Virus record (IMG/VR): IMGVR_UViG_2721755721_000001
DNA: 64,000 bases
From: a virus
Lineage: Duplodnaviria > Heunggongvirae > Uroviricota > Caudoviricetes
Direction: 5' to 3' (one strand)
Part shown: positions 756-54,861 of the stretch, piece by piece
Position numbering within the stretch: the first letter of the stretch is position 1
Layout: each line of letters starts with the position of its first letter
Program-made: the position numbers and the translations under genes
Notes under the pieces: model-generated
The model's input: only the letters and a program-made list of their open reading frames with translations
Databases searched by the model: none
Told to the model about the DNA's origin: nothing

Positions 756-783
756 CCTTAATAAATAAGACTCACGCAAAGCC

Positions 784-4117: not shown

Positions 4118-4148
4118 CGTGGATTACTCCGTTTTCAGCGGTATTTTG

Positions 4149-4677: not shown

Positions 4678-4793
4678 CTTCGTTACCTCATATAACGTGC
4701 TGGTCAGACGCCTCGGTGCTGCTGCAAACACTCCGGGGCGTTGCTATTTTGTTTTTCTGTGTGTAATGTGTCATTACACATAAATACATTACA

Positions 4794-4988: not shown

Positions 4989-5037
4989 TTAATACGTTGG
5001 GGAGGCTTTTTTCTCCCCAGCTTTGTTAATATTGTCA

Positions 5038-5253: not shown

Positions 5254-5355
5254 GAAATTACCTGCCGTATTATGTAATGAACACGGCAGATACTATGGGG
5301 ATATCAAAATGCTGTGAAGGTAGTGTAATCAACTCTACCTGTAGATTGTTTCAGT

Positions 5356-6237: not shown

Positions 6238-6267
6238 TATGACCTCTGTTTTAAATTATAAGAGTAT

Positions 6268-7554: not shown

Positions 7555-7814
7555 TTTGGTAAATTGATGGTATCTGCATATCGAACTGGGGAATACCATC
7601 ACTTATACCATCACGAGGTTGTAATGTCATGAAATTAACTGAAATGAAAATCAGGCCGATTCGGTGATAACTTACTGTTTTTTTAAGTGGTTATGTAATG
7701 AAGTGAAATGTAGAGAAAGGTCTTTAAAGTGTCCCCTGCAGACATCTACTTGAGGCAGCAGGGGATTGATTGGAATGGTGTTTTTTAGGTGTGAGAAATA
7801 TTTTACCCGCTATT

Positions 7815-8015
7815 TTACCCATTGGCGCGGCTTAAGAGCTTATTTTTGAATTCACAATGGTCACGATATAACCATCTTGCTCGACCGTGGATAACTTTGG
7901 CTTTTGGCAGGTCGCCGGACTTAATCCGGTCGTAGATGAAGGTTTTACCAAAGCCAGTATCGGCCATGATGAATTTCAAATCAACCAGTGAATCAGGTTG
8001 TAGTTCGTGTTGCAT
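7815..8015 (-). CDS. xis: excisionase / AlpA-like HTH DNA-binding protein (66 aa)
   Basis: Small basic HTH protein directly upstream of the integrase, GGAGA Shine-Dalgarno. Confidence 0.6.
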   Translation of the reverse strand: MQHELQPDSLVDLKFIMADTGFGKTFIYDRIKSGDLPKAKVIHGRARWLYRDHCEFKNKLLSRANG

Positions 8016-8057
8016 GAGTGCTATCTCCGAATAGGGAATCGAACCTGCAAATCAGGC

Positions 8058-8090
8058 AAGAAAAAACCGCCATCAGGCGGCTTGGTGTTC
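8058..8090 (-). terminator. rho-independent terminator (minus strand)
   Basis: Minus-strand GCCGCCTGATGGCGG hairpin followed by a T-run. Confidence 0.5.
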
Positions 8091-28954: not shown

Positions 28955-29299
28955 ATGAAGAAAAAATACGAACTGGTTGTTAAAGGGATAAATAATTACC
29001 CGGATAAGATTACTGTTACTGTGGCACTGGAAATTGGTGGGTATCCGTCACTGTTGTTGCCAAATGTGGCGATTAGTCTTGACCGTACTGAAGGTGCCAC
29101 GCTGGAGTTTTACGAAGCGGAGGCGAAAAAGCAGGCGAAGCAGTTTTTCATGGATGTTGCTGCCGGGTTATGTGAAGGGGATGGTCCGTTGCCGGAAAAG
29201 CGGCCCATCATTTTAGAGGCGCAGGATGTGTTGATAACCTACAGAGGAAAACTACCGGGAATAATTACTGGTTCTCTGAAGACTCCACCGCTGGCCTGA
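28955..29299 (+). CDS. hypothetical protein (114 aa) between holin and endolysin
   Basis: ORF only; unusual position. Confidence 0.5.
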   Translation: MKKKYELVVKGINNYPDKITVTVALEIGGYPSLLLPNVAISLDRTEGATLEFYEAEAKKQAKQFFMDVAAGLCEGDGPLPEKRPIILEAQDVLITYRGKLPGIITGSLKTPPLA

Positions 29300-29349
29300 A
29301 GACTTAACATATCCAGGGATTTGAAATCGATAAACCCTGATAAATATCC

Positions 29350-29883
29350 ATGAACACCAAAATCAAATACGGCCTGTCGGCTGCCGTTCTGGCGCTGATT
29401 GCCGCAGGTGCGCCTGCGCCTGAAATCCTCGACCAGTTTCTGGATGAAAAGGAAGGTAACCACACCACGGCATACCGTGATGGCGCGGGTATCTGGACCA
29501 TCTGCCGCGGTGCCATCCTGGTGGATGGTAAACCTGTCGTTCCGGGCATGAAGTTGTCGAAGGAAAAATGCGACCAGGTTAACGCCATTGAACGTGATAA
29601 GGCGCTGGCATGGGTGGAGAAAAACATCAAAGTGCCACTGACCGAACCCCAGAAAGCGGGGATCGCGTCATTCTGTCCGTACAACATTGGTCCCGGTAAA
29701 TGTTTCCCGTCGACGTTTTACAGACGAATTAATGCAGGTGATCGCAGGGGAGCGTGTGAGGCGATTCGCTGGTGGATTAAGGACGGTGGCAGAGACTGCC
29801 GTATTCGCTCAAATAACTGTTACGGTCAGGTATCCCGTCGCGACCAGGAGAGTGCGCTGGCGTGCTGGGGAATTGACAGATAA
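29350..29883 (+). CDS. R: SAR endolysin (T4-type lysozyme, GH24)
   Basis: N-terminal SAR segment YGLSAAVLALIAAGAPA, E-x8-D-x5-T catalytic motif (EGNHTTAYRDGAGIWT). Confidence 0.9.
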   Translation: MNTKIKYGLSAAVLALIAAGAPAPEILDQFLDEKEGNHTTAYRDGAGIWTICRGAILVDGKPVVPGMKLSKEKCDQVNAIERDKALAWVEKNIKVPLTEPQKAGIASFCPYNIGPGKCFPSTFYRRINAGDRRGACEAIRWWIKDGGRDCRIRSNNCYGQVSRRDQESALACWGIDR

Positions 29884-29972
29884 GCAGAATATTTTGCTGA
29901 AAAATGCGGTTTGCTCACACGGACGGATAACACGAAATCCTGAGAACTGACAAAAACTAAGTGAATAAAAGT

Positions 29973-30010
29973 AAAAACCCCATTTGTTGGCTGCAAGCGG
30001 GGTTTTGTGT
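29973..30010 (+). terminator. putative rho-independent terminator after the endolysin (repeated at 34865-34903)
   Basis: aaaacccc...cggggtttt stem followed by a T-rich run. Confidence 0.4.
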
Positions 30011-30181
30011 TTCCTGACTCCGGAAAAGTCAAAGGAGAAAGTGTGTTTGATTTTAGCAAACTGATTCGGGAGATTCGAGTGATGGCTGAAAAATTATCCA
30101 CCTGGAAGTTCATCCTTATCTGGCTGGTGTTTGTGATTATGGCCTCCGGTTATTTCATCGGTCAGATACGCTGGTGGTGAA

Positions 30182-30676
30182 ATGAACCGCGTACTGTGCG
30201 TGGTCATCATTGCCCTGCTGGTGGCCTGTGGTGCGCTTAGTCTGGGGCTGAATCATTACCGTGATAACGCCATAACCTACAAAGAGCAGCGCGATAAAAA
30301 AGTCAGTGAGCTGGAGCTGGCAAATGCAACCATTACTGATATGCAGCAGCGCCAGCGTGATGTTGCTGCACTTGATGCCAGATACTCGAGGGAATTAGCC
30401 GATGCGAGAGCTGAAAATGAAACTCTTCGCGCTGACGTTGCCGCTGGTCACCGCAGCCTGCGGATCAACGCCACCTGTCCAGGTCCCGTGCGTGAAGCCA
30501 CCGGCACCGCCCGCGTGGATAATGCAACCGGCCCCCAACTGGCAGACACCGTTACACGGGATTATTTCACCCTCAGAGAGCGGCTGATGACGATGCAGAA
30601 GCAACTGGAAGGGGCACAGGACTATATCCGCACTCAGTGTACTAAGCAGGCTTTTTATTATCCGGAGGATGTATGA
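30182..30676 (+). CDS. Rz: Rz i-spanin
   Basis: N-terminal TM, coiled-coil; embedded Rz1 in +1 frame. Confidence 0.8.
   Translation: MNRVLCVVIIALLVACGALSLGLNHYRDNAITYKEQRDKKVSELELANATITDMQQRQRDVAALDARYSRELADARAENETLRADVAAGHRSLRINATCPGPVREATGTARVDNATGPQLADTVTRDYFTLRERLMTMQKQLEGAQDYIRTQCTKQAFYYPEDV
30402..30587 (+). CDS. Rz1: Rz1 o-spanin lipoprotein (embedded in Rz)
   Basis: Lipobox LVTAAC, proline-rich. Confidence 0.6.
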   Translation: MRELKMKLFALTLPLVTAACGSTPPVQVPCVKPPAPPAWIMQPAPNWQTPLHGIISPSESG

Positions 30677-30897
30677 AGAAATTACAGGTAACGGTAAAAC
30701 CTTTTCAGGGAACAATTCCGTTCCGTGTTTTGCAACATGGCCGTGTTCTGCTTGAAGAGGTGTTCAGAGGTAAATGCACTGAATGTTATTCACGAACATA
30801 TGAAGTGAATGCCACGCATGAAGAATTCACCGTTGAGTGTGTGATGAATACTGATAAATGCCGAATGGTATCCGCTGAATTACAGCCAGTGTGTTGA
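30673..30897 (+). CDS. hypothetical protein (74 aa) after Rz
   Basis: ORF coupled to the Rz stop; conserved in the second copy at 35756-35980. Confidence 0.45.
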   Translation: MKKLQVTVKPFQGTIPFRVLQHGRVLLEEVFRGKCTECYSRTYEVNATHEEFTVECVMNTDKCRMVSAELQPVC

Positions 30898-31256
30898 GCG
30901 ACCTTATTATCCATGCGCGGTATTGTCGCCGTATTCCTGCATTAACAGAGACCGCAGCCCGACAGGGCGACTCCTCTGCGGGAGTGTGCGGGGATAATCA
31001 AAAACGATACACACCGGGGTTTACCGCGTAAACGGAGCGCGGCGTTCTCCCCTCATGGTCGCCCGTCCGGTGCGATGGTGGAAGAAACTGGAATCTGTTC
31101 AATAAAAAAAACTGCCGTGTTGGAGTCACAGCAGTAATGTACTGATTGGGTAGAAGATTATTATTGTTATGCTTTATTCTTATTCTATATGGCTGATTAT
31201 TTGGTAACCGGCTCATTTAAACCGTCTGGTCTGTTTCCTCCGGCTCTACAAAAATA

Positions 31257-31934
31257 ATGTCCATCATTTTTAATGGACACTATCGTATGAAACACCGGAC
31301 CTGGATCACTGAAGCTTTACGTCTTCACTTTGAAGAACATTTACCCCGGGTTGTGGCCGGGCGTCGCCTGAGTGTACCAAAATCAACAGTTTGTAGTATG
31401 TTCGTGCGCTTTCGGAGAGCTGGCCTTTCGTGGCCTTTGCCCGCAGGCATGTCGGAGCAGGAACTTGATGCCTGCCTTTACGGACAATTTTCCACGGTAC
31501 CAGTCGTACGTCCTGAAAGCACCGTTATATCCGAAGCCCCCGTGGTAAAAAAACGTCCCCGGCGGCCCAACTTCCCTTATGAGTTTAAAATCGCCTTAGT
31601 GGAGCAGTCACTACAGCCCGGAGCCTGTGTGGCGCAGATCGCCCGGGAAAACGGAATCAACGATAACCTGCTCTTCAACTGGCGCCATCAATACCGGAAA
31701 GGTGGCCTGCTGCCTTCCGGAAAAAATATGCCGGCACTGCTTCCCGTGACGTTAACGCCGGAGCCGGATAATAAAATCCCGGCCCCCGCACAGGAACCAG
31801 AGCAGATAAATACACCGTCCGACAGTCTGTGTTGTGAGCTGGTTCTGCCGGCCGGAACTCTCAGGCTTAAAGGTAAACTGACGCCGGCGTTATTACAGAC
31901 ACTTATCCGCGAAATAAAAGGGAGCAGCCACTGA
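31257..31934 (+). CDS. tnpA: IS66-family accessory protein TnpA (orf1)
   Basis: First ORF of the IS66 triad. Confidence 0.7.
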   Translation: MSIIFNGHYRMKHRTWITEALRLHFEEHLPRVVAGRRLSVPKSTVCSMFVRFRRAGLSWPLPAGMSEQELDACLYGQFSTVPVVRPESTVISEAPVVKKRPRRPNFPYEFKIALVEQSLQPGACVAQIARENGINDNLLFNWRHQYRKGGLLPSGKNMPALLPVTLTPEPDNKIPAPAQEPEQINTPSDSLCCELVLPAGTLRLKGKLTPALLQTLIREIKGSSH

Positions 31935-32281
31935 TGATATCTCTCCCTGCAGGTTCGCGTATCTGGCTGGTTGCAGGTATCACCGATATGCGAAATGGCT
32001 TTAACGGCCTGGCATCAAAAGTTCAGAACGTCCTGAAGGATGACCCGTTCTCCGGACACCTGTTCATCTTCCGCGGACGCCGGGGTGACCAGATAAAAGT
32101 GTTGTGGGCTGACAGTGACGGACTGTGCCTCTTCACCAAACGCCTGGAGCGGGGCCGCTTCGTCTGGCCAGTCACCCGTGACGGCAAGGTGCACCTTACT
32201 CCGGCTCAGTTATCCATGCTTCTTGAAGGTATCAACTGGAAGCACCCGAAACGAACGGAACGCGCTGGAATCCGCATATAA
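31934..32281 (+). CDS. tnpB: IS66-family TnpB (orf2)
   Basis: 115 aa, ATGA overlap with orf1, typical IS66 orf2. Confidence 0.8.
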   Translation: MISLPAGSRIWLVAGITDMRNGFNGLASKVQNVLKDDPFSGHLFIFRGRRGDQIKVLWADSDGLCLFTKRLERGRFVWPVTRDGKVHLTPAQLSMLLEGINWKHPKRTERAGIRI

Positions 32282-32300
32282 CCCGTTGTAAAGTGAGGAT

Positions 32301-33872
32301 ATGGACACCTCACTTGCTCATGAGAACGCCCGCCTGCGGGCACTGTTGCAGACGCAACAGGACACCATCCGCCAGATGGCTGAATACAACCGCCTGCTCT
32401 CACAGCGGGTGGCGGCTTATGCTTCCGAAATCAACCGGCTGAAGGCGCTGGTTGCGAAACTGCAACGTATGCAGTTCGGTAAAAGCTCAGAAAAACTTCG
32501 TGCAAAAACCGAACGGCAGATACAGGAAGCACAGGAGCGAATCAGCGCACTTCAGGAAGAAATGGCGGAAACGCTGGGTGAGCAATATGACCCGGTACTG
32601 CCATCCGCCCTGCGCCAGTCTTCAGCCCGTAAACCGTTACCGGCCTCACTTCCCCGTGAAACCCGGGTTATCCGGCCGGAAGAGGAATGCTGTCCTGCCT
32701 GTGGTGGTGAACTCAGTTCTCTGGGATGTGATGTGTCAGAGCAACTGGAGCTTATCAGCAGCGCCTTTAAGGTTATCGAAACACAACGTCCGAAACAGGC
32801 CTGTTGCCGGTGCGACCATATCGTGCAGGCACCAGTACCTTCAAAACCCATTGCACGCAGTTATGCCGGAGCGGGGCTTCTGGCCCATGTTGTCACCGGG
32901 AAATATGCAGACCATCTGCCGTTATACCGCCAGTCAGAAATATACCGTCGTCAGGGAGTGGAGCTGAGCCGTGCCACACTGGGGCGCTGGACAGGTGCTG
33001 TTGCTGAACTGCTGGAGCCGCTGTATGACGTCCTGCGCCAGTATGTGCTGATGCCCGGTAAAGTCCATGCTGATGATATCCCCGTCCCGGTCCAGGAGCC
33101 GGGCAGCGGTAAAACCCGGACAGCCCGGCTGTGGGTCTACGTCCGTGATGACCGTAACGCCGGTTCACAGATGCCCCCGGCGGTCTGGTTCGCGTACAGT
33201 CCGGACCGGAAAGGTATCCATCCACAAAATCACCTGGCCGGTTACAGCGGTGTGCTTCAGGCCGATGCTTACGGTGGTTACCGGGCGTTATACGAATCCG
33301 GCAGAATAACGGAAGCCGCGTGTATGGCTCATGCCCGGAGAAAAATCCACGATGTGCATGCAAGAGCGCCCACCTACATCACCACGGAAGCCCTGCAGCG
33401 TATCGGTGAACTGTATGCCATCGAGGCAGAGGTCCGGGGCTGTTCAGCAGAACAGCGTCTGGCGGCAAGAAAAGCCAGAGCCGCGCCACTGATGCAGTCA
33501 CTGTATGACTGGATACAGCAACAGATGAAAACACTGTCGCGTCACTCAGATACGGCAAAAGCGTTCGCATACCTGCTGAAACAGTGGGATGCACTGAACG
33601 TGTACTGCAGTAATGGCTGGGTGGAAATCGACAACAACATCGCAGAGAACGCCTTACGGGGAGTGGCCGTAGGCCGGAAAAACTGGATGTTCGCGGGTTC
33701 CGACAGCGGTGGTGAACATGCGGCGGTGTTGTACTCGCTGATCGGCACATGCCGTCTGAACAATGTGGAGCCAGAAAAGTGGCTGCGTTACGTCATTGAA
33801 CATATCCAGGACTGGCCGGCAAACCGGGTACGCGATCTGTTGCCCTGGAAAGTTGATCTGAGCTCTCAGTAA
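32301..33872 (+). CDS. tnpC: IS66-family transposase (TnpC)
   Basis: 523 aa; leucine-zipper N-terminus, CPACGG/CCRCDH zinc-finger region, DDE-type core. Confidence 0.9.
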
Positions 33873-33902
33873 ATATCAATACGGTTCTGACGAGTCGCTT
33901 AC

Positions 33903-34193
33903 ATTACTGTTACTGTGGCACTGGAAATTGGTGGGTATCCGTCACTGTTGTTGCCTGATGTGGCGATTAGTCTTGACCGTACTGAAGGAGCCACGCTGGA
34001 GTTTTACGAAGCTGAGGCGAAAAAGCAGGCGAAGCAGTTTTTCATGGATGTTGCTGCCGGGTTATGTGAAGGGGATGGTCCGTTGCCGGAAAAGCGGCCC
34101 ATCATTTTAGAGGCGCAGGATGTGTTGATAACCTACAGAGGAAAACTACCGGGAATAATTACTGGTTCTCTGAAGACTCCACCGCTGGCCTGA
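33903..34193 (+). pseudogene. 5'-truncated second copy of the 114-aa holin-endolysin intergenic gene
   Basis: Homology to copy A resumes at 29009 = 33903, mid-gene, immediately after the IS66 right end. Confidence 0.7.
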
Positions 34194-34243
34194 AGACTTA
34201 ACATATCCAGGGATTTGAAATCGATAAACCCTGATAAATATCC

Positions 34244-34777
34244 ATGAACACCAAAATCAGATACGGCCTGTCGGCTGCCGTTCTGGCGCTGATTGCCGCA
34301 GGTGCGCCTGCGCCTGAAATCCTCGACCAGTTTCTGGATGAAAAGGAAGGTAACCACACCACGGCATACCGTGATGGCGCGGGTATCTGGACCATCTGCC
34401 GCGGTGCCATTCTGGTGGATAGTAAACCTGTCGTCCCGGGCATGAAGTTGTCGAAGGAGAAATGCGACCAGGTTAACGCCATTGAACGTGATAAGGCGCT
34501 GGCATGGGTGGAGAAAAACATCAAAGTGCCACTGACCGAACCCCAGAAAGCGGGGATCGCGTCATTCTGTCCGTACAACATTGGTCCCGGTAAGTGTTTC
34601 CCGTCGACGTTTTATAAACGAATTAATGCAGGTGATCGCAGGGGAGCGTGTGAGGCGATTCGCTGGTGGATTAAGGACGGTGGCAGAGACTGCCGTATTC
34701 GTTCAAACAACTGCTACGGTCAGGTATCCCGTCGTGACCAGGAGAGCGCGCTGGCGTGCTGGGGTATCGACAGATAA
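34244..34777 (+). CDS. R: SAR endolysin, second (divergent) copy
   Basis: 177 aa, 3 substitutions versus copy A. Confidence 0.85.
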   Translation: MNTKIRYGLSAAVLALIAAGAPAPEILDQFLDEKEGNHTTAYRDGAGIWTICRGAILVDSKPVVPGMKLSKEKCDQVNAIERDKALAWVEKNIKVPLTEPQKAGIASFCPYNIGPGKCFPSTFYKRINAGDRRGACEAIRWWIKDGGRDCRIRSNNCYGQVSRRDQESALACWGIDR

Positions 34778-35258
34778 GCAGAATATTTTGCTGAAAAATA
34801 AAGCATGGCCACGCGGGCGGATAACATGAAATCCTGCGAACTGGCGAAACGTAAGTGAATAAAAGTAAAAACCCCGTTTGTTGGCACCAAGCGGGGTTTT
34901 GTGTTTCTGACCTTGAGTAAGGCAAGGGAGAACATGGCGAAGTATAAACGAATTCTGTTGAGGTTGACCATGAAAAACGGCCTTGAACTGAAAGCGCCTG
35001 TAACTGATGACATCAGCAGAGCACTGGCTTTTGCCATTAAGTGGGTGGCGGTCGGTGTTGCTGTGTCCCCGATGCTGTATGGGCTGGCAAAACTGGTCAT
35101 TGCGTTGAAATCGTGAAGGGAGGATTAAGCATGTCAGACAAACTCATAACGCTGGCGAAGATCCTCTGTGTAATTGTCGGCATTTCATTTTCACTAATGC
35201 TGGTTGCTCTTTTTCTTTCCATGGCCTGGATGATGTTGTCTTCGTCGGGGCTGCTGGG

Positions 35259-35759
35259 GTGAACATAAACCGAATGCTTTCCGCGTTTATCGTTATTCTG
35301 CTGGTGGCCTGTGGTGCGCTGTGGATGGCAACAGACCATTACCGTGATAACGCGATTACCTACAAAGCGCAGCGCGATAACAAAGCCAGTGAACTGAAGC
35401 TGGCGAACGCAACCATTACTGATATGCAGGTGCGCCAGCGCGATGTTGCTGCGCTCGATGCAAAATACTCGAGGGAATTAGCCGATGCGAGAGCTGAAAA
35501 TGAAACTCTTCGCGCTGACGTTGCCGCTGGTCGTAAGCGCCTGCGGATCAACGCCACCTGTCCAGGCTCCGTGCGTGAAGCCCCCACCACCTCCGGCGTG
35601 GATAATGCAACCGGCCCCCGACTGGCAGACACCGCTGAACGGGATTATTTCATCCTCAGAGAACGGTTGATGACAATGCAGAAGCAGCTGGAAGGGGCGC
35701 AGGAATATATCCGCACTCAGTGCACTAAGCTGGCTTTTTATTATCCGGAGGATATATGA
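35259..35759 (+). CDS. Rz: Rz i-spanin, second copy (divergent N-terminus)
   Basis: 166 aa; embedded Rz1 at 35485-35670. Confidence 0.8.
35485..35670 (+). CDS. Rz1: Rz1 o-spanin lipoprotein, second copy
   Basis: Lipobox LVVSAC, Pro-rich. Confidence 0.6.
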
Positions 35760-35980
35760 AGAAATTACTGGTAACCGTAAAGCCTTTTCAGGGAACAATT
35801 CTGTTCCGTATTTTGCAGCGTGGTCGTGTTCTTGTTGAAGGTTCGTTCAGTGGTAAATGTACGCAATTACACTCCCGGACCTTTCAGGTGAATGCCACGA
35901 ATGAAGAGCTAACCGTTGAGTGTACGATGAATGCCGCTAAATGCCGCATGGTATCCGCTGCATTACAGCCAGTGTGTTGA
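35756..35980 (+). CDS. hypothetical protein (74 aa), second copy
   Basis: Paralogue of 30673-30897. Confidence 0.45.
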
Positions 35981-36312
35981 GCGACCTTATTATCCATGCG
36001 CGGTATTGTCGCCGTATTCCCGCATTAACAGAGACCGCAGCCCGACCGGGAGACTCCTCTTCGCGAGTGTGCGGGGATAATCAAAAACGATACACACCGG
36101 GGTTTACCGCGTTAACGGAGCGCGGCGTTGCCCCTCATAGTCGCCTGTCCGGTGCGATGGTGGAAGAAGCCGGACGATGTGTTACCTCGCAAGCCCTGTT
36201 ATGTGTCTGATTTGTGATTTAAGTCGGATAATTGTCGTTGCCATCAAGCAGAGGATTGATGACCGACAGGGTGGCATTGTTAGAATAAGACTTATTCTTA
36301 TCTGTGCCGGGA

Positions 36313-36645
36313 ATGAAAATGAAAAGAAATCTTCCGTTAATTATTTTGTTGTCTTCTCTGGTTATGGGCTGTACGCAACATAAAACAGATATGCCCCGAC
36401 AATTGGTGAAGGCATTACCACAATATCCGGCCTATGCAGCGGCAAATTATATAAAGGGACGGGTTGATGTGAAGTTTGATATTGGTGCTGATGGTACTGT
36501 CACCCGAATTGAGTTTATCCGTTCAGAGCCGCACCATCTGTTTGATGAGCAGGTTGTAAAGGCGATGGCAAAATGGCGATTTGAGAAGGACAGGCCGCGT
36601 AAAGGCGTGAAGAAAACGTTTATCTTTAGTCCTTCTGCACCCTGA
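36313..36645 (+). CDS. lipoprotein with TonB C-terminal-like domain
   Basis: Signal peptide plus lipobox LVMGC; YPAYAAANYIKGRVDVKFDIGADGTVTRIEFIRSEP...FDEQVVKAMAKWRFE resembles the TonB_C fold motif. Confidence 0.6.
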   Translation: MKMKRNLPLIILLSSLVMGCTQHKTDMPRQLVKALPQYPAYAAANYIKGRVDVKFDIGADGTVTRIEFIRSEPHHLFDEQVVKAMAKWRFEKDRPRKGVKKTFIFSPSAP

Positions 36646-36776
36646 TTATTTCATCAGAAATTAATTATCACTCTGTTGTTATTCTGTACATCCCGGCTGG
36701 GTAAGTCTTGTTCCGCCGGGTATGAAGATGAAATATTGTTGGAGGACAGTGGGTACCTGCTCCTGTAACCGAACGT

Positions 36777-36977
36777 TCATTTCTCGTTATTTGTCATGCT
36801 GGCCGTACGCAGATGCGTTGCATCTGTTGCCAGCCTTCTCCTGCAGGCTTCAATAACCCACGCTGAAAAGTTACCGGACCCTTTATGCTCAAGGGCGATG
36901 TTGATCTGTTCAATCATCTGGTTTGGAAATCGGATGTTGCGGGTTGTTGTTCTGCGGGGCCGGTTTTTCGATGACAT
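36777..36977 (-). CDS. ylcI: YlcI/YnfO-family prophage protein
   Basis: MSSKNRPRRTTTRNIRFPNQMIEQINIALEHKGSGNFSAWVIEACRRRL. Confidence 0.7.
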   Translation of the reverse strand: MSSKNRPRRTTTRNIRFPNQMIEQINIALEHKGSGNFSAWVIEACRRRLATDATHLRTASMTNNEK

Positions 36978-37018
36978 TTTCTTTCCTCTGGTGACAAGCT
37001 ATATGGCGAGGATTTTAC

Positions 37019-37384
37019 ATGGCTGTGCTTCGTACGTTACCGGGCAGAATCAAAACTCTGAACACCCGGCGGGTGAATGTCCTGAAGGGTGAACAGCGTC
37101 GTGTCAGTGGCAGTGCACGTGTTTCCCTCAAGCGTCATATCTGGCTCAGGGATGCCGGGCAGTGCTGTCTCTGTGGTCGTGTGGTTGACCTCTGTGACAG
37201 TGAACTCGATCACCGAATTGCACTTCAGTTCGGTGGTGGTAATGAGGAGACGAATCTCTGGACGCTCTGTACCGAATGCCATCGACAAAAGTCTGCTCGT
37301 GAAGCGGCGGGTGGTATGCCGGACCCGACGCTGCCGGAGGTGTCCGGAGGTCATGGCAGGGCAGACGATATCATCGGACTGTGA
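37019..37384 (+). CDS. HNH endonuclease (terminase-associated)
   Basis: CCLCG...DHRIALQFGG...NLWTLCTECHRQK HNH motif; upstream of terS. Confidence 0.8.
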   Translation: MAVLRTLPGRIKTLNTRRVNVLKGEQRRVSGSARVSLKRHIWLRDAGQCCLCGRVVDLCDSELDHRIALQFGGGNEETNLWTLCTECHRQKSAREAAGGMPDPTLPEVSGGHGRADDIIGL

Positions 37385-37476
37385 CCCGCCCCGGGGGGGG
37401 GATCATCCGGCGAAAAAAACGATCGCTCCGGACACCGCCCCCCCTCTCATGCAGAGAAAAAATTCCTGTTTCAGGG

Positions 37477-37604
37477 CAGTTAACATGTTAACTGGCTGCC
37501 CGGGCATTTTTGCGGTTTTTATCTTTATTATTCAGTTTGTTGTGCGAAAAAAATGTTAACTGGCTTTTTCAGCAAATGTTAACCAAGCAGCAGTTAACAT
37601 TTGC
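37477..37604. repeat. cluster of TGTTAAC-centred palindromes in the HNH-terS intergenic region (putative cos/terminase recognition)
   Basis: cagttaacatgttaactg (18-bp perfect palindrome), aaatgttaactggc, gcaaatgttaac-N9-gttaacatttgc; a G9 tract lies at 37393-37401. Confidence 0.5.
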
Positions 37605-37674
37605 GGCATGAGACGCCGGGAAAAATGGGCTGAACCATACCCGGCTGAGTGCGTTCTGGACCCGGGAGGAGGCT

Positions 37675-38238
37675 GTGCTGACAACGCAAAAACGAAAATT
37701 TGCGCTGGCGCTCATGTCCGGGAAAAACAAAACAGCGTCAGCCATTGCCGCCGGTTATTCGGCGAAGACCGCCAGGGTTAAAGGCTCGCAGCTGGCAAAA
37801 GATCCGGAGGTGCTCGCGTTTATAGCCCGTAAACAGTGCGAGACGGTGGAGGTGGATGAGGTTCCTGTTTACCGGCAGAAAAAATCAGAGCAGGAGGATA
37901 AACCCCGTCGCCGTGAGGTGGCTGCAATACCACAGCCGGACGAAAACAATCCGGAGATGCCACCGTCCGCGGTGATGTCTCCTGGTATTGAATATATGGA
38001 GGATGGTCTTCCCGATCCGGTGAAAGCCATGGGGCGGATCCTGGTGGAAAACCTCTGCATTGATCCGAAACTGGCACTGGATGCGGCCTGGCGTCTGGCG
38101 CAGTTCACGCACCATAAAAAAGGCGATGCCGGTAAAAAATCGGCAAAAGGTGATGCCGCGAAAAAAGCGGCTAACCGTTTTGCGGTGCCACCACCTCCCC
38201 GGCTGGTGGTGAATAACCAGAATGAGGAAAGCGGATGA
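37675..38238 (+). CDS. terminase small subunit (P27/HK97-like)
   Basis: MLTTQKRKFALALMSGKNKTASAIAAGYSAKTARVKGSQLAK... Confidence 0.8.
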   Translation: MLTTQKRKFALALMSGKNKTASAIAAGYSAKTARVKGSQLAKDPEVLAFIARKQCETVEVDEVPVYRQKKSEQEDKPRRREVAAIPQPDENNPEMPPSAVMSPGIEYMEDGLPDPVKAMGRILVENLCIDPKLALDAAWRLAQFTHHKKGDAGKKSAKGDAAKKAANRFAVPPPPRLVVNNQNEESG

Positions 38239-39896
38239 TACCTGTATGGAGCACGGCATGTCCGGACTGGGCAGAGCGCCTGCAAAAGGGACTGTCGATT
38301 ATTCCGGCTCCGATTTATCCGGACCAGGCTGCACATGCCCTGGCGATTTTTAAACAACTGCGGATTGTGGATGCACCGGGTAGCCCGACGTTCGGGGAGT
38401 CCTGCGCACCGTGGGTGTTTGACCTGGTGGCGGCCCTGTTTGGCTCCTATGATGCGCAGACCGGTGTACGCCATATCAAGGAAGTGTTTATCCTTATCCC
38501 CAAGAAAAACAGTAAGTCCACGCTGGCCGCGGGGATCATGATGACGGCGCTGTTACTGAACTGGCGGCAGGCGGCGGGCTACACCATTCTGGCCCCGACC
38601 GTGGAGGTGGCGGCCAACGCCTTCAACCCTGCCAGGGATATGGTGCGACGGGACGATGATCTGGATGACCTCTGTCAGGTGCAGACACATATCCGGACCA
38701 TCACCCATCGGGTGACGGACACCACCCTGAAGGTGGTGGCAGCCGATCCGAATACGGTGTCCGGTATCAAGTCCGTGGGGACACTGATTGATGAACTGTG
38801 GCTGTTTGGCAAGCAGTACAAAGCGGAAGACATGCTACGTGAAGCCATCGGCGGGCTTGCCTCCCGTCCGGAAGGATTTGTGGTGTACACAACCACCCAG
38901 TCGAATGAGCCGCCAGCCGGGGTGTTCAGACAGAAACTGCAGTACGCCCGGGATGTCCGTGACGGCAAAATTCATGATCCGCACTTTCTGCCGGTGATAT
39001 TTGAACACCCTCCTGAAATGGTGGAAAGCGGGGCTCACCTGCTGATGGAAAACCTCGCCATGGTTAACCCGAATCTCGGTTATTCGGTGGATGAGGCTTT
39101 TCTGTACCGGGAGTACCGTAAAGCCCGGGAGGCTGGTGAGGAAGCATTTCGTGGCTTCATGTCAAAACACGCCAATGTGGAAATCGGTCTTGCCCTGCGT
39201 TCTGACCGCTGGGCGGGCGCGGATTTCTGGGAGCAGCAGGGCAGGCGCGTCAGCCTGGACGATATCCTGCAGCGCGCTGATGTGGTGACGGTGGGGATTG
39301 ACGGCGGGGGCCTGGATGATCTGCTGGGAATGTACGTGACTGGCCGTGACAGGGAAACCCGCGAATGGCTGGGCTGGGGCCATGCCTGGGTGCATGAAAC
39401 CGCGGTGGTCAGACGGAAGAGTGAGGCATCCCGGTTTCAGGATTTTGTGGCCTGTGGAGACATGACGATTGTCCGTCGGGTCGGGGATGACACGGCGGAA
39501 GTGGCGGAGTATGTGCGTCGTATTCATGAGGCTGAGTTACTGGACCATATCGGTATTGACCCGTCAGGGGTGGGGCAGATTCTGGATTCACTGGCGGAAG
39601 CCGGGATCCCCGATGAGAGTGTGGTGGGGATAAGCCAGGGCTGGAAGCTGGGCGGGGCCATCAAAACCACCGAGCGCAAACTGGCTGAAGGGGTGCTGAT
39701 TCACGGTGATCAGCCCCTGATGGCCTGGTGTGTCGGTAATGCCCGGGTGGAGCCTAAAGGTAACGCCATTCTTATCACCAAACAGGCCAGCGGACGGGGA
39801 AAAATTGACCCGCTGATGGCGCTCTTCAATGCGGTGTCCCTGATGTCCCTTAACCCGGAACCGAAAAAGAAAGCGTATGAGGTTTTTTTCATATAA
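38235..39896 (+). CDS. terminase large subunit (complete copy)
   Basis: 553 aa, ATGA-coupled to terS; ATPase and nuclease regions. Confidence 0.9.
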   Translation: MIPVWSTACPDWAERLQKGLSIIPAPIYPDQAAHALAIFKQLRIVDAPGSPTFGESCAPWVFDLVAALFGSYDAQTGVRHIKEVFILIPKKNSKSTLAAGIMMTALLLNWRQAAGYTILAPTVEVAANAFNPARDMVRRDDDLDDLCQVQTHIRTITHRVTDTTLKVVAADPNTVSGIKSVGTLIDELWLFGKQYKAEDMLREAIGGLASRPEGFVVYTTTQSNEPPAGVFRQKLQYARDVRDGKIHDPHFLPVIFEHPPEMVESGAHLLMENLAMVNPNLGYSVDEAFLYREYRKAREAGEEAFRGFMSKHANVEIGLALRSDRWAGADFWEQQGRRVSLDDILQRADVVTVGIDGGGLDDLLGMYVTGRDRETREWLGWGHAWVHETAVVRRKSEASRFQDFVACGDMTIVRRVGDDTAEVAEYVRRIHEAELLDHIGIDPSGVGQILDSLAEAGIPDESVVGISQGWKLGGAIKTTERKLAEGVLIHGDQPLMAWCVGNARVEPKGNAILITKQASGRGKIDPLMALFNAVSLMSLNPEPKKKAYEVFFI

Positions 39897-39920
39897 CCCT
39901 GCTCACCCTGTAACCATCAT

Positions 39921-39945
39921 GAACCGCTGCGGCGGTTTTTTTATT
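39921..39945 (+). terminator. hairpin plus T-run after terL (repeated at about 41750-41775)
   Basis: accgctgcggcggtttttttatttt. Confidence 0.45.
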
Positions 39946-39959
39946 TTCAGGAGGCTGAT

Positions 39960-40544
39960 GTGACTCTTAAACGGGCCTGTTCCCTGCTGACGGTGAAATC
40001 CTTCAGTGAGGATGAGCGGGTGATCACCGGGATTGCGTCAACGCCTTCTCCGGATCGGGATGGTGACATCCTGGAGCCGGAGGGCGCGGAGTTTGGCAGT
40101 GCGATCCCGTTTCTCTGGCAGCATGACCATTCCCGCCCGGTGGGGCAGTGTACGGTGCGCCGGGTCAGCGAAGGGCTGGAAATCACGGCAACACTGGCGA
40201 AGCCCGTGCCGGATATGCCATCGCAACTGGTTGCCCGGCTGGATGAGGCCTGGGCGGCCATTAAGACCGGGCTGGTCAGGGGGCTTTCCGTGGGCTTCCG
40301 TCCCCATGAATACACCTTTCTGGACGGAGGCGGACTGCATTTTCTGCGCTGGGAACTGATGGAGGTGTCTGCCGTCACCGTGCCCGCGAATGCGGAATGC
40401 ACCATCCGGACCATTAAATCTTACGACCGCCCGTTTTCTGCACTAACGCCTTCAACCCTGCCAGGGATATGGTACGACGGGACGATGATCTGGATGACCT
40501 CTGTCAGGTGCAGACACATATCCGGACCATCACCCATCGGGTGA
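39960..40544 (+). pseudogene. truncated prohead protease fragment (first copy), broken at the duplication junction near 40443
   Basis: First about 160 aa match the N-terminus of the 645-aa protease-capsid protein; the reading frame then runs into the duplicated terL segment. Confidence 0.7.
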
Positions 40545-41725
40545 CGGACACCACCCTGAAGGTGGTGGCAGCCGATCCGAATACGGTGTCCGGTATCAAG
40601 TCCGTGGGGACACTGATTGATGAACTGTGGCTGTTTGGCAAGCAGTACAAAGCGGAAGACATGCTACGTGAAGCCATCGGCGGGCTTGCCTCCCGTCCGG
40701 AAGGATTTGTGGTGTACACAACCACCCAGTCGAATGAACCGCCTGCCGGGGTGTTCAGACAGAAACTGCAGTACGCCCGGGATGTCCGTGACGGCAAAAT
40801 TCATGATCCGCACTTTCTGCCGGTGATATTTGAACACCCTCCTGAAATGGTGGAAAGCGGGGCTCACCTGCTGATGGAAAACCTCGCCATGGTCAATCCG
40901 AATCTCGGTTATTCGGTGGATGAGGCTTTTCTGTACCGGGAGTACCGTAAAGCCCGGGAGGCTGGTGAGGAAGCATTTCGTGGCTTCATGTCAAAACACG
41001 CCAATGTGGAAATCGGTCTTGCCCTGCGTTCTGACCGCTGGGCGGGCGCGGATTTCTGGGAGCAGCAGGGCCGTTGTATCAGCCTGGACGATATCCTGCG
41101 TCGTGCTGATGTGGTGACGGTGGGGATTGACGGCGGAGGGCTGGATGATCTGCTGGGAATGTACGTGATTGGGCGTGACCGGGAGACCCGCGAATGGCTG
41201 GGCTGGGGCCATGCCTGGGCGCATGAAACCGCGGTGGTCCGACGGAAGAGCGAGGCGTCCCGGTTTCAGGATCTTGTTGCCTGTGGAGATATGACCATTG
41301 TCCGGCGTGTCGGGGATGACACGGCGGAAGTGGCGGAATATGTGCGTCGCATTCATGAGGCTGAGTTACTGGACCATATCGGTATTGACCCGTCAGGGGT
41401 GGGGCAGATTCTGGATTCACTGGCGGAAGCCGGGATCCCCGACGGAATTGTGGTGGGGATAAGCCAGGGCTGGAAACTGGGCGGGGCCATCAAAACCACC
41501 GAGCGCAAACTGGCTGAAGGGGTGCTGATTCACGGTGATCAGCCCCTGATGGCCTGGTGTGTCGGTAATGCCCGGGTGGAGCCTAAAGGTAACGCCATTC
41601 TTATCACCAAACAGGCCAGCGGACGGGGAAAAATTGACCCGCTGATGGCGCTCTTCAATGCGGTGTCCCTGATGTCCCTGAATCCGGAACCGAAAAAGAA
41701 AGCGTATGAGGTTTTTTTCATATAA
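40469..41725 (+). pseudogene. partial second copy of terL (C-terminal 418 aa, no N-terminal ATPase start)
   Basis: About 95% identical to terL residues from about 129 to the end; begins at the junction. Confidence 0.7.
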
Positions 41726-41788
41726 CCCTGCTCACCCTGTAACCATCATGAACCGCTGCGGCGGTTTTTTTATTTTCAGGAGGCTGAT

Positions 41789-43726
41789 GTGACTCTTAAA
41801 CGGGCCTGTTCCCTGCTGACGGTGAAATCCTTCAGTGAGGATGAACGGGTGATCACCGGGATTGCGTCAACGCCTTCTCCGGATCGGGATGGTGACATCC
41901 TGGAGCCGGAGGGGGCTGAGTTTGGCAGTACGATCCCGTTTCTCTGGCAGCATGACCATTCCCGCCCTGTAGGACAGTGTACGGTGCGTCGGGTCAGGGA
42001 AGGGCTGGAAATCACGGCAATGCTGGTGAAGCCGGAGCCGGGGATGCCCTCCCAGATGGCAGCCCGGCTGGATGAGGCCTGGGCTGCCATTAAGACCGGG
42101 CTGGTCAGGGGGCTTTCTGTGGGCTTCCGGCCCCATGAATACACTTATCTGGACGGAGGCGGACTGCATTTTCTGCGCTGGGAGCTGATGGAGGTGTCTG
42201 CCGTCACCGTGCCCGCGAATGCGGAATGCACCATCCGGACCATTAAATATTTCGACCGCCCGTTTTCTGCCGCGTCCGGCAACCGGAAACCGGTGGTGAA
42301 AATCGCATCTTCTGCCGGCGCTGCGGCACAGTCAATAACCTCTTTTCATAAGGAAAAGTCAGCAATGAATACTGGTGAACAGATTAAAAGTTTTGAAAAC
42401 AAGCGTGCGGCGCTGGCAGCCTCCCTTGAGGAGATCATGAACAAAGCCGCAGAGGAAGGCCGCACACTGGATGTGGAAGAGGAAGAGCACTACGACAACA
42501 CCGCAGCGGAAATCCGTCAGGTGGATGCGCACCTGAAGCGTCTGCGTGAACTGGAAACCAGTAAGGCCGCCACGGCACAGCCGGTGAAACAGGCCGGTAA
42601 CGGGAATGTGGCCACGGTGGCTTCAGCGCCGGTGATCCGTGTTGAGCAGAAACTGGAGAAGGGGATTGGTTTCGCCCGCTTTGCCAAATCACTGGCCGCG
42701 GCTAAAGGTGTCCGCTCTGAAGCCCTGGAAGTGGCCCGTCGTCAGTATCCGGATGACAGCCGTCTGCATCATGTCCTGAAATCGGCGGTGGGGGCAGGGA
42801 CCACCACGGACCCACAGTGGGCAGGCAGCCTGTCTGAATATCAGGAATATGCGCAGGACTTTATTGATTACCTGCGTCCGCAGACCATTATCGGGCGATT
42901 TGGTCAGGGCGGGATCCCTGCACTTCGTCAGGTGCCGTTCAATATCCGCGTGCATGCCCAGGTGTCCGGCGGTGCTGCCAGCTGGGTGGGGGAGGGTAAG
43001 GCCAGACCCCTGACGAAGTTTGATTTTGAGTCCATCACCTTCAGTCATGCGAAGGTGTCGGCCATTGCGGTACTGACGGAAGAGCTGATCCGTTTTTCCA
43101 GTCCGGCAGCTGATGCGCTGGTCCGTAATGCGCTGGCAGAAGCGGTGGTGGCGCGTCTGGACACAGACTTTGTGGACCCGAAAAAAGCCGCAGTGGCAGA
43201 TGTCTCCCCGGCGTCCATCACCCATGATGTGAAGGGCACGGCATCAACCGGTAACCCGGATGCGGATGCCGAGGCGGCGTTTGGCCAGTTTGTGGCAGCA
43301 AACCTGCAGCCCACCGGTGCGGTCTGGCTGATGTCCAGCACCAATGCCCTGGCACTGTCCATGCGTAAAAATGCGCTGGGTCAGAAGGAATACCCGGACA
43401 TGACCCTGCTGGGTGGCTCCTTCCAGGGGCTGCCGGTGATTGTCTCCCAGTACGTGGGTGACCAGCTGGTGCTGGTGAATGCCCCGGATATTTATCTGGC
43501 GGATGACGGCGGTGTGGCAGTGGATATGTCCCGTGAAGCGTCACTGGAAATGCAGTCTGAGCCGGGCGGCGACAGCACCACACCGTCGCCGGTGGAGCTG
43601 GTTTCCATGTTCCAGACCGGCAGCGTGGCCATCCGTGCGGAGCGCTGGATCAACTGGCGTCGTCGCCGTACTGCGGCGGTGGCTGTGATCACCGGTGTGA
43701 ACTACGGCAGTGCGTCCGGCGGCTGA
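41789..43726 (+). CDS. HK97-family prohead protease fused to major capsid protein (645 aa)
   Basis: N-terminal protease domain, linker, C-terminal HK97-fold capsid region. Confidence 0.8.
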   Translation: MTLKRACSLLTVKSFSEDERVITGIASTPSPDRDGDILEPEGAEFGSTIPFLWQHDHSRPVGQCTVRRVREGLEITAMLVKPEPGMPSQMAARLDEAWAAIKTGLVRGLSVGFRPHEYTYLDGGGLHFLRWELMEVSAVTVPANAECTIRTIKYFDRPFSAASGNRKPVVKIASSAGAAAQSITSFHKEKSAMNTGEQIKSFENKRAALAASLEEIMNKAAEEGRTLDVEEEEHYDNTAAEIRQVDAHLKRLRELETSKAATAQPVKQAGNGNVATVASAPVIRVEQKLEKGIGFARFAKSLAAAKGVRSEALEVARRQYPDDSRLHHVLKSAVGAGTTTDPQWAGSLSEYQEYAQDFIDYLRPQTIIGRFGQGGIPALRQVPFNIRVHAQVSGGAASWVGEGKARPLTKFDFESITFSHAKVSAIAVLTEELIRFSSPAADALVRNALAEAVVARLDTDFVDPKKAAVADVSPASITHDVKGTASTGNPDADAEAAFGQFVAANLQPTGAVWLMSSTNALALSMRKNALGQKEYPDMTLLGGSFQGLPVIVSQYVGDQLVLVNAPDIYLADDGGVAVDMSREASLEMQSEPGGDSTTPSPVELVSMFQTGSVAIRAERWINWRRRRTAAVAVITGVNYGSASGG

Positions 43727-43937
43727 GTCTGATGAGGAGGGCGGGAGGTAAGAGCGTCCCGCAGTAACTGATGGCAAAAATCCGATATCTGCAGGGTACA
43801 CATGATGCCCGGCCCGGGGATATCCGGGATGTCGCACAGCCGTGTGCGGAGGTGCTGGTTCGCCTGAGGAAGGCGGAGTACATCACAGTGCGACGTCCGG
43901 CAGGTCAGAAAAAGAAACGTGATGCGGAGCATGGCGA

Positions 43938-45302
43938 ATGTGGAACCTTTTGCGGCGAACCCGAAAAAACCAGAAATCAGGACGTGACGTAAGAGAAGTG
44001 GGCTGGCGGTCCCTGTTTCAGGCGGTGGCTGAGCCTTTTGCCGGTGCCTGGCAGCAGGGTGTGAAAGCCGATCCGGAAACCGTTTTGTCCTTTCACGCGG
44101 TGTTTTCATGCATTTCGCTGATATCCCAGGATATTGCCAAAATGCGGCTTCGCCTGATGCAGACTGATGTACAGGGAATACGCCGGGAAAAGCGGCAGGG
44201 AGATACTGCCCGTCTCTGTCGTCGTCCTAATGCACAGCAGAATCGCATCCAGTTTTTTGAACTGTGGCTGAATTCCAAATTGCGTCACGGCAATACGGTG
44301 GTGCTGAAAATCCGCAACCACCGGGGGCAGATCAAAGAACTGCGTATTCTGGACTGGAGCCGGGTTGAACCTCTGGTGGCGGATGACGGCGACGTGTTCT
44401 ACCGCATCACGCCGGACCGGAACTGTGGGATCACGGAGGCGGTGACGGTGCCTGCCCGGGAGGTGATCCACGACCGTTTTAACTGTTTTTTTCATCCGCT
44501 TGTGGGGCTGCCGCCGGTGTATGCCGCAGGACTGGCCGCCATGCAGGGGCATCATATTCAGGCAAATTCGACGTATTTTTTCAGAAATGGCGGGCGACCA
44601 TCAGGCGTGATTGAGGTCCCCGGCAGTATTACGGAAGAAAACGCGAAAAAACTGAAGGGGAACTGGGACAGCGGATATACGGGCGAAAATGCGGGGAAAA
44701 CGGCCATACTGAGCAACGGGGCAAAATACAGCCCTACGACGTTTTCACCGGTGGATGCGCAGACGGTGGAACAACTGAAAATGACGGCTGAAATTGTCTG
44801 TTCGGTGTTCCGTGTCCCGGCCTACAAGATTGGCGTTGGCCACCCGCCTTCCAGTGACAACGTGGAGGCGCTGGAGCAGCAGTATTATTCCCAGTGTCTG
44901 CAGACGCTGATTGAGTCCATTGAGCTGTTACTGGATGAGGCGCTGGAAACGGGGGAAAACGAGAGCACGGAGTTTGACGTCACCACGCTGCTGAGAATGG
45001 ACAGCGAACGGCGCATGAAAACACTGGGTGAATCGGTGAAAAATACGCTTCTCACGCCCAATGAGGCCCGTAAACGTGAGAACCTGCCGCCCCTTGCGGG
45101 AGGTGATGCACTGTATCTTCAGCAGCAGAACTACAGTCTGGAGGCGCTGTCCCGTCGTGATGCCCGTGAAGATCCGTTTGCGTCGTCCGGGAAAAGAGTT
45201 TCAGCCCAACTGCCTGACGGCGCATCTGACGGTAATAAGGCAATCAGTGAAACAGAGCATGGTGCGTTGAAAGCGATGTTGAGGGGGATACTGCGAAAAT
45301 GA
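43938..45302 (+). CDS. phage portal protein (start uncertain)
   Basis: 454-aa ORF with portal-like central region; position after the capsid gene. Confidence 0.65.
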   Translation: MWNLLRRTRKNQKSGRDVREVGWRSLFQAVAEPFAGAWQQGVKADPETVLSFHAVFSCISLISQDIAKMRLRLMQTDVQGIRREKRQGDTARLCRRPNAQQNRIQFFELWLNSKLRHGNTVVLKIRNHRGQIKELRILDWSRVEPLVADDGDVFYRITPDRNCGITEAVTVPAREVIHDRFNCFFHPLVGLPPVYAAGLAAMQGHHIQANSTYFFRNGGRPSGVIEVPGSITEENAKKLKGNWDSGYTGENAGKTAILSNGAKYSPTTFSPVDAQTVEQLKMTAEIVCSVFRVPAYKIGVGHPPSSDNVEALEQQYYSQCLQTLIESIELLLDEALETGENESTEFDVTTLLRMDSERRMKTLGESVKNTLLTPNEARKRENLPPLAGGDALYLQQQNYSLEALSRRDAREDPFASSGKRVSAQLPDGASDGNKAISETEHGALKAMLRGILRK

Positions 45303-46036
45303 CGGAACGGGAACTGTCCATTATTCGTGCACTGGGCGAAGAATTCGCCACGGTGCTGGCGGATTTACAGCACACATTTGAGGAGAAGATGGCCGCGCAG
45401 GCACAAGCGTTTGAAGAGAAACTGGCTTCCCTGTCGGCGGTATTACAGAAGCATGTGACGGTGGATGAGGTACATCCGGTTCTGCAGGCGATGGTGGATG
45501 ACGCTGTGGGGGCCATTTCGGTACCGCGTGATGGTCGTGACTACGATCCCGATGTTCTGCGGAAGGCGGTTCTGGAGGCGGTGAATGCCCTTCCGGCTCC
45601 GCAGGACGGGCGTGATGCCACGGCACTGGAAGTGCTCCCCGCTATTGACGATCAAAAATCCTTTCCCCGGGGCACGTATGCCACACACCTGGGTGGACTC
45701 TGGCGGGCGTATGAAAAAACGCACGGGATGCGGGGATGGGAATGCCTGGTTGACGGGGTGGCGGATATCGACGTCAGCATGACGGATGAGCGGTTGTTCT
45801 CTGTGGTGATCCGGCAGAGCAGTGGCCAGTGTACGGAAAAAACATTTTCCCTGCCGGTGATGCTCTACCGCGGTGTGTTCAGAGCCGGTGAAACCTACCA
45901 CCCCGGCGATACGGTGACGTGGGGGGGCTCGCTGTGGCACTGCAACAGTATGACCGGTGATAAACCCGGAGAAGCTCATTCATCAGGCTGGACCCTGGCT
46001 GCAAAACGTGGACGGGATGCAGGAGGCGGAAAATGA
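45299..46036 (+). CDS. hypothetical head-associated protein (245 aa)
   Basis: ORF coupled to the portal gene. Confidence 0.5.
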   Translation: MTERELSIIRALGEEFATVLADLQHTFEEKMAAQAQAFEEKLASLSAVLQKHVTVDEVHPVLQAMVDDAVGAISVPRDGRDYDPDVLRKAVLEAVNALPAPQDGRDATALEVLPAIDDQKSFPRGTYATHLGGLWRAYEKTHGMRGWECLVDGVADIDVSMTDERLFSVVIRQSSGQCTEKTFSLPVMLYRGVFRAGETYHPGDTVTWGGSLWHCNSMTGDKPGEAHSSGWTLAAKRGRDAGGGK

Positions 46037-54626: not shown

Positions 54627-54861
54627 AAAGAATAAAAAAATCCCGCAGAGTTGCGGAACTGAGGGAGCGTTACGAAGATTAAGTGTAAGGAATTATTCTT
54701 ATGTCACGACAAAAAACATTAACGCAGAGAAATTATTAGCACCACAGTCAGTTTGTAAAAATGTGAAGATATTCAGAAGTTTTATTCAGTGATGATACAG
54801 GCATCCTCAGGGATGCCTGTTGTTTTTGTGCGTAACAGTTATCACAGTAAAGGGTGAGACA

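Follow-up and report, generated by a model that had tools for sequence, protein, structure and literature searches.

Organization of the duplicated head-gene region

The window analysed here is the whole 64,000-nucleotide (nt) stretch of the IMG/VR virus record IMGVR_UViG_2721755721_000001, a member of the Caudoviricetes. It contains a lambdoid prophage (8071-64000, at least 56 kb) in whose head-gene module part of the large terminase gene (terL) and part of the adjoining protease-capsid gene occur twice, head to tail. Positions 28235-49896, including the junction between the two copies, are identical to locus L015 in the 4.80-Mb chromosome of Escherichia coli S50 (GenBank CP010238.1, GCA_001901405.1). 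Genes were called from Pfam and PHROG scans together with a list of open reading frames (ORFs), and the features discussed below are collected in Table 1.

Table 1. Features of the duplicated region and of its surroundings (positions in the window)
Feature	Positions	Strand	Evidence or remark
Second overlap duplication, lysis cassette twice around IS66	29009..36168	+	Direct-repeat search
terS, intact, allele A	37675..38238	+	Pfam Terminase_2, PHROG 641; 100% identical to L020
terL, full length, 553 aa, allele A	38235..39896	+	PF03354 + PF20441, ATPase and nuclease domains
Repeat copy 1, allele A	38615..40443	+	terL codons 127-553, 63-nt spacer, protease-capsid codons 1-162
Truncated protease-capsid ORF, 194 codons	39960..40544	+	Peptidase_S78 and out-of-frame tail
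Novel non-homologous junction	40443..40444		Allele A protease codon 162 to allele B terL codon 127
Minimal allele B patch (copy 2 + 142 nt)	40444..42412	+	L013 match; may reach 42813
terL fragment, 418-codon ORF from internal Met136	40469..41725	+	PF20441 only
Protease-scaffold-major capsid fusion, intact, 645 aa	41789..43726	+	PF04586 + PF05065, PHROG 617
12-nt stretch in allele B, absent in A	42271..42282	+	Exactly at the repeat boundary; L020/L013 comparison
B-to-A switch interval	42413..42813		A and B-like relative identical here; presumed homologous crossover
Portal, allele A, intact, downstream context	43938..45302	+	PF04860, E = 1e-79; 100% identical to L019 and L020

Base-by-base comparison resolved a direct repeat with a start-to-start period of 1829 nt, copy 1 lying at 38616-40441 and copy 2 at 40445-42270. 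The copies are 1826 nt each and differ by 68 substitutions and no insertion or deletion (indel), which corresponds to 96.3% identity. A reading of the window made from its letters alone (the sequence-only reading) had described just such a tandem repeat of the 3' part of terL and the 5' part of the protease gene, with about 95% identity between the copies, and the observation is confirmed. At an offset of 1829 nt, the identity per 50 nt rises from about 0.25 outside the repeat to 0.9-1.0 within 38616-40441 and drops again on both sides, so that the similarity of the copies is far above chance. The substitutions are clustered, with about 0.8% divergence in 38616-39240 and 39648-40015 and about 7.5% in 39243-39647 and 40016-40423. 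Examples of stretches without any difference between the copies are 38646-38908 and 39648-39850. The arrangement is that of a tandem segmental duplication in that the copies stand head to tail, with nothing between them and one novel joint.

One intact terL and one intact protease-capsid gene survive in this arrangement, and the extra pieces are a protease stub and a terL fragment, as the sequence-only reading had recognized in its truncated first protease and start-less partial terL. The upstream terL is the sole complete copy of the region and encodes an HK97-type large terminase, with Walker A and B motifs in its ATPase domain followed by a nuclease domain; the exact protein is present on 14 other contigs. 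Its Walker A-like motif (PKKNSKST, at about residues 88-96) lies upstream of the duplicated part and its Walker B-like motif (LIDE, at about 185-188) inside it. Consequently, the fragment from copy 2 has neither Walker A nor the native start required of a functional large terminase, but it retains Walker B along with the nuclease domain, and the description of it as consisting of the nuclease domain only has to be corrected. The fragment is preceded by a single Shine-Dalgarno-like sequence (AGGGA), which is 1 nt from the ATG. Judging from its domain content, a terL product of this kind would be unable to power packaging.

The reading frame shifts at the joint because the period of 1829 nt leaves a remainder of 2 when divided by 3. 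The protease stub therefore consists of 161-162 native residues followed by about 32 codons that run out of frame through terL. Its Peptidase_S78 match extends over residues 48-152 (profile positions 51-155 of 165), and the His and Ser motifs of the family (WQHDH and GLSVGF) are retained. The full-length gene, called a protease in the sequence-only reading, does not encode a stand-alone protease but a fusion of protease, scaffold and major capsid protein, of which the stub has the S78 domain and nothing else that is native. The stub is probably not encapsidated, since the scaffold and capsid part, which would place the protease inside the procapsid, is missing. The intact fusion gene downstream is itself a hybrid, with its protease end derived from one allele and its capsid end from another, and its exact 645-aa product is known from this genome only.

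Allelic origin of the two copies and the uninterrupted site

The two copies are natural alleles of different phage lineages, here called A and B. Allele A is represented by L020, a Logan assembly of the independent sequencing run SRR12961195 that carries the exact A-type TerL. L020 has no mismatch to the window over 37000-40441, and its 100% identity extends on the left of the junction through position 40443. Against the right side it differs at the 68 sites of copy 2, at the 12-nt indel bordering the repeat and at position 42412, after which no mismatch occurs over 42413-45540; the first, at 45541, is near the end of the L020 contig. In L020, ...CCGTTTTCTGC runs straight into ACGGAAACC..., the equivalent of window base 40443 being contiguous with that of 42284. 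Since these two positions abut, L020 represents the uninterrupted allele A backbone, or empty site.

Allele B is represented by L013, a prophage of strain PRO_A-1443-6M-A_ESBL, which matches the inserted stretch at 99.85-99.9%. There are two mismatches in 40443-41748 and one in 41741-42813 (three in 2.37 kb), and beyond this stretch the divergence is about 3%. B-specific sites end at 42412, and the window first departs from L013 at 42814, leaving an identity tract of 401 nt in which the return to allele A is hidden. The minimum extent of B beyond the repeat rests on the 12-nt indel and one single-nucleotide polymorphism (42412). This indel is a polymorphism of the protease-capsid gene, whose product has 645 aa in allele B and 641 aa in allele A; relatives with A-type TerL have 641-aa capsid genes. 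Thus, the order of segments is A up to 40443, B from 40443/4 to a point within 42412-42813, and A again to 45540, for a net gain of 1,840 nt over allele A.

The differences between the copies have the appearance of ordinary variation between phages. Counting position 38615 along with the 68 substitutions, 48 of the 69 differing sites are at third codon positions, and 8 amino-acid changes are found among 427 codons of terL and 11 among 160 codons of the protease. In a panel of 11 relatives, both variants occurred at 38 of the 68 sites and the copy-1 variant only at a further 27. The differing sites form haplotype blocks that are found in other genomes; even the terL block of copy 2 at 41060-41490, which at first seemed private, is matched by 655 E. 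coli records at 99% identity or more. Whichever two alleles of the head-gene family are compared, they are 2-5% apart without indels. Natural haplotypes and a family-wide divergence of this size indicate that the copies differ by between-phage variation and not by decay after duplication. The third-position bias and the shared haplotype blocks further indicate that both copies evolved as working genes in different phages.

The sequence-only reading had taken the scattered substitutions to mean that this is no recent in-place duplication and had suggested recombination with a related prophage. Recombination is supported by copy 1 and the flanks, which are 100% L020, and by copy 2, which is about 99.9% L013. 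An origin in place can likewise be regarded as unlikely given that the copies are allelic. However, the age that was read from the divergence does not stand, because the flanks are still 100% identical to database relatives and the divergence thus says nothing on the age of the event.

The junction and its occurrence in other genomes

At the junction the two alleles are joined with base-exact precision through a single shared C (40443) and without filler. The natural reading of allele A at this point is ...CTGC-AC-GGAAACC, in the 12-nt deletion variant of the capsid gene, and that of allele B is ...GGCGGCT-AACGCC, with GGCGGCT present in most alleles. B-specific sequence begins with T at 40444, 1-2 nt away from the joint, and the next B-type site is 40474. 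A 3-nt non-templated filler ACT (40442-40444) was entertained and rejected, as L020 and L013 show that "AC" comes from A and "CT" from B; it was the 12-nt indel at the boundary of the duplication that gave the joint the appearance of a 3-nt spacer.

The head-gene family itself is widespread. It is single-copy at this place in 94 of 94 matching phage records, where the region measures 4572 nt versus 6401 nt in the window, and about 1,250 of the 5,426 complete E. coli genomes carry it, all in single copy and none with the junction. The exact products of the two junction ORFs, stub and terL fragment, are not on record in the public collection.

Two other records depart from the usual arrangement. 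The Stx1a phage EH182 (L003, LC744189.1, 501-6385) has about 1.3 kb of extra DNA in its terS-to-portal region and no match to window positions 38126-38430. It was considered as a further duplication and set aside, since its size and the gap fit, as inferred from length, an insertion sequence (IS) within terL. The 95-aa protein P0003, from a Logan contig of another sample, is a terL product that stays in frame to ...ANAFNPA and then continues in the frame of the junction-ORF tail (VIWYDGTMIWMTSVRCRHISGPSPTG). It reflects a terL frameshift a few codons downstream of the breakpoint position, which is probably a sequencing error.

Prophage context and a second overlap duplication

The head-gene module is common to Stx1a and Stx2c phages and to many non-Stx lambdoid prophages of E. 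coli. The prophage carries intS at its right end, and its left side diverges from a close relative at the position where that relative has torI; its integration module is of the torI/intS KplE1/CPS-53 type, of which this prophage is a full-length form and the K-12 KplE1/CPS-53 element a remnant. Directly beside it (window 1-8070) lies a P4-like satellite with a TOPRIM/DUF927 primase, psu, a sid-like gene, alpA and an integrase. The window holds no tRNA gene and no ORF of the size of stx. In the closest relatives, the annotation near the right end includes an OspG-family effector kinase, a Lom-type outer-membrane protein and IS1. In the search for a sister genome with the same prophage minus the duplication, none covered more than 75% of the early region.

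A second overlap duplication is found upstream of the head genes. The lysis cassette (a ydfR-like gene, lysozyme, Rz and a 74-aa ORF) is present at 29009-31086 and again at 33903-36168, the copies being 96% and then 87.5% identical. Between them lies an ISCro1-like IS66 element of 2,700 nt (31203-33902), whose 8-nt flanks differ, which means that no target-site duplication is present. L016 and L018 match the left copy with 100% identity, beginning at 28751 and continuing to the IS, and the right side, 33903-37000, is 100% identical to six loci (L029-L033 and L035). Since its segments match different loci, the prophage combines pieces of at least three circulating lineages and includes two joins that are out of register.

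The prophage is probably defective. Its tail-tip gene J (54820-58336), which is intact in L013, carries a 1-nt insertion (G 56719) that splits it into ORFs of 644 and 538 aa and may be either an inactivating mutation or a sequencing error. As for the genes next to the duplication, the portal gene was annotated as "frameshifted" by RefSeq in every portal-containing relative examined. The portal ORF (454 aa) shares ATGA with the following ORF (245 aa) in the window (43938-46036), the arrangement expected of separate, coupled genes. A 162-nt (54-aa) tandem repeat within the 245-aa ORF varies in copy number; compared with L017 (7880-8300), two units (324 nt) are missing from the window.

Probable formation of the duplication by out-of-register recombination

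We consider it probable, with moderate confidence, that the structure is the scar of a B fragment of 2.0-2.4 kb that was spliced out of register into an A-type prophage and is functionally inert. In this scenario, the donor would have been a linear piece of a related prophage or phage carrying allele B, reaching from codon 127 of terL to a point in the first third of the protease-scaffold-capsid gene. Its left end would have been fused, without homology, to A DNA that had been broken after codon 162 of the protease, and its right end would have entered by a homologous crossover within 42413-42813. Equivalently, one illegitimate and one homologous crossover may have taken place between two co-replicating lambdoid genomes. 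Because the left join sits 1.8 kb downstream of the allelic position, such an exchange leaves a head-to-tail partial duplication, and the copies would have been about 4% different from the moment of formation. This would depart from the usual notion of a tandem duplication, in which the copies come from the same molecule and are identical at birth, whereas here copy 1 is of the L020 type and copy 2 is about 99.9% of the L013 type. A circular B fragment entering by a single crossover was also considered and rejected, as it would give B on both sides of the joint, and the left side is pure A.

The best reading of this pattern is that it represents the expected outcome of homology-facilitated illegitimate recombination (HFIR), a process described in Streptococcus pneumoniae, Acinetobacter baylyi, Pseudomonas stutzeri, and E. 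coli conjugation (PMC3240628). In HFIR a donor segment comes to lie inside a recipient backbone, and here the order is A-B-A with L020 as the backbone. One end of the segment, taken from a related allele, is resolved by homologous recombination, here probably inside the tract of perfect identity, and the other is an illegitimate joint with little or no homology, in this case one shared base and no filler. The joints of E. coli HFIR had 0 or 1 nt of homology in four of four clones (PMC3240628). The S50 structure differs from these cases in two respects. First, its illegitimate joint is displaced downstream from the allelic position, with the result that recipient DNA was duplicated, not deleted, and the 1,840 nt were gained. 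Second, the donor appears to have been fully homologous phage DNA, in contrast to foreign DNA with a single anchor.

Alternative explanations

The strongest competitor of a recombination scar is an assembly artefact, in which a chimeric read or a mis-stitched contig would have put 1.84 kb of a B-type allele, present elsewhere in the genome or as a contaminant, into a single-copy A-type prophage. The sequence-only reading had spoken of an assembly collapse, but collapse removes copies, and the artefact relevant here is the chimeric join. Several observations speak for it and thus against a real event. The junction is private to one GenBank record. Searches of the phage records, GTDB representatives, IMG/VR, metagenome contigs and the 5,426 complete E. 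coli genomes gave no other carrier, and none of the proteins in 5.8 billion clusters extends across the joint. Both sides of the joint end no more than 1 nt from an allele-discriminating site, for which a simple post hoc count gives a joint chance of about 0.005, and such a coincidence is what the stitching of allele-specific contigs might give. Furthermore, the second overlap duplication adjoins an IS66 copy without target-site duplication, IS elements being classic points of mis-joining, and the 1-nt frameshift in gpJ could be a sequencing error. The record CP010238.1, cited as NZ_CP010238.1 in 2019, is missing from the 2026 RefSeq set of complete genomes. A separate point, directed against the HFIR reading, is that classical HFIR usually replaces or deletes recipient DNA, whereas the present case is a duplication.

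On the other hand, several details of the joint and of the assembly speak against an artefact. A joint with 1 shared nt is made by no k-mer graph without reads that contain it. The related possibility that the arms of a De Bruijn bubble were placed in series was rejected for the same joint and because identical stretches of at most 263 nt would break allele-specific unitigs. Independent records match each segment at 100% or close to it, without indels, which argues that the assembly is accurate at the base level. A second source of these alleles was sought in CP010238.1 with two flanking proteins, the A-type TerL and the copy-2 lysozyme; each exact protein has a single entry for this genome, although as many as four places are listed for other genomes. 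Finally, the prophage is bounded at the torI position on the left and by intS on the right; these outer ends belong to a single, coherent integration module, and the window is therefore not a splice of two loci. On balance, we regard an artefact as a serious but rather unlikely explanation, and a real event in the S50 chromosome rather than a product of assembly as somewhat favoured, to about the same degree as the out-of-register scar itself.

Tandem duplication in place, with the second copy later overwritten by gene conversion from a related prophage, would also produce divergent copies, and the alternation of blocks with 0.8% and about 7.5% divergence resembles conversion tracts. It can draw on the fact that illegitimate tandem duplications are classical in lambda. 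Nevertheless, the same patchiness exists between any two alleles of the head-gene family, and it is the whole of copy 2, not patches of it, that matches the single lineage L013 at 99.85-99.9%. The B-type sites reach the joint (T 40444, then 40474), where a conversion tract has no place to start, as the protease sequence left of the joint shares no homology with a donor terL. Since duplication plus conversion needs two rare events where one suffices, this route seems improbable.

The sequence-only reading had also raised the possibility that a truncated protease and a terL fragment interfere with packaging. This is conceivable, and nothing in our analysis supports it. The corresponding proposal, that the duplication was kept because a TerL devoid of Walker A or a free prohead protease poisons the packaging of superinfecting relatives or of the prophage itself, we judge very improbable, for although both fragments are ORFs within the late operon, the stub keeping its S78 His and Ser motifs and the terL fragment its nuclease and presumed portal-binding end, the arrangement occurs in one genome only and thus gives no indication of having been selected or of spreading, the terL fragment is without its native start and without a ribosome-binding site at the proper distance, the stub is devoid of the part that tethers the protease to the capsid protein, and the prophage shows other decay (IS66 insertion, split gpJ). 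Equally slight is the chance of a combined case, in which a real HFIR-type footprint makes out-of-register capture a route to added length and spare fragments, and the fragments, in a further step, are expressed and interfere with related phages.

Relation to known duplications and mosaics

The proposed out-of-register scar also has parallels among lambdoid phages. In phage lambda, tandem duplications arising by illegitimate recombination are classical, dating from the genetics of the 1970s. The S50 structure resembles them in its head-to-tail internal repeat, its novel joint, the one intact copy left of each interrupted gene and the longer cos-packaged lambdoid genome. However, lambda duplications are born identical, whereas the S50 copies are alleles of two lineages, which points to an event between genomes rather than within one.

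Recombination between co-resident lambdoid prophages, yielding chimeric phages, has been obtained experimentally in O157 Sakai (PMC2669165). The mosaics of enterohemorrhagic E. coli described there belong to the same phage family as the S50 prophage, with Stx1/Stx2c- and Sp-type head genes, and, like it, contain segments with 100% identity to various circulating prophages. Mosaic joints are typically in register, either homologous or at gene boundaries, and leave no overlapping duplicated fragments; the S50 joint does leave them. A further analogy lies within the same prophage, where the lysis cassette flanking IS66 is likewise an overlap duplication whose copies are different alleles, with a related donor lineage. 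Unlike it, the terL/protease junction has neither an IS nor any other repeat and is a direct base-to-base join.

Implications

Seen in one genome, the S50 duplication is an event of a familiar kind, an out-of-register joint in the mosaic of a lambdoid prophage, or possibly an assembly error, and does not constitute a new system. Mosaicism and illegitimate joints are textbook knowledge for lambdoid phages. For annotation, neither two terminases nor two capsid genes should be attributed to the prophage of E. coli S50, and the region requires read-level validation before it is used as a reference.

If real, the structure would be a cleanly resolved natural case of out-of-register exchange, for which one can identify the recipient allele and the donor lineage as well as the empty site and the base-exact joint. 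It would then illustrate, usefully if unsurprisingly, how an illegitimate join on one side combined with a homologous one can leave spare gene fragments in a lambdoid genome while the essential genes remain intact.

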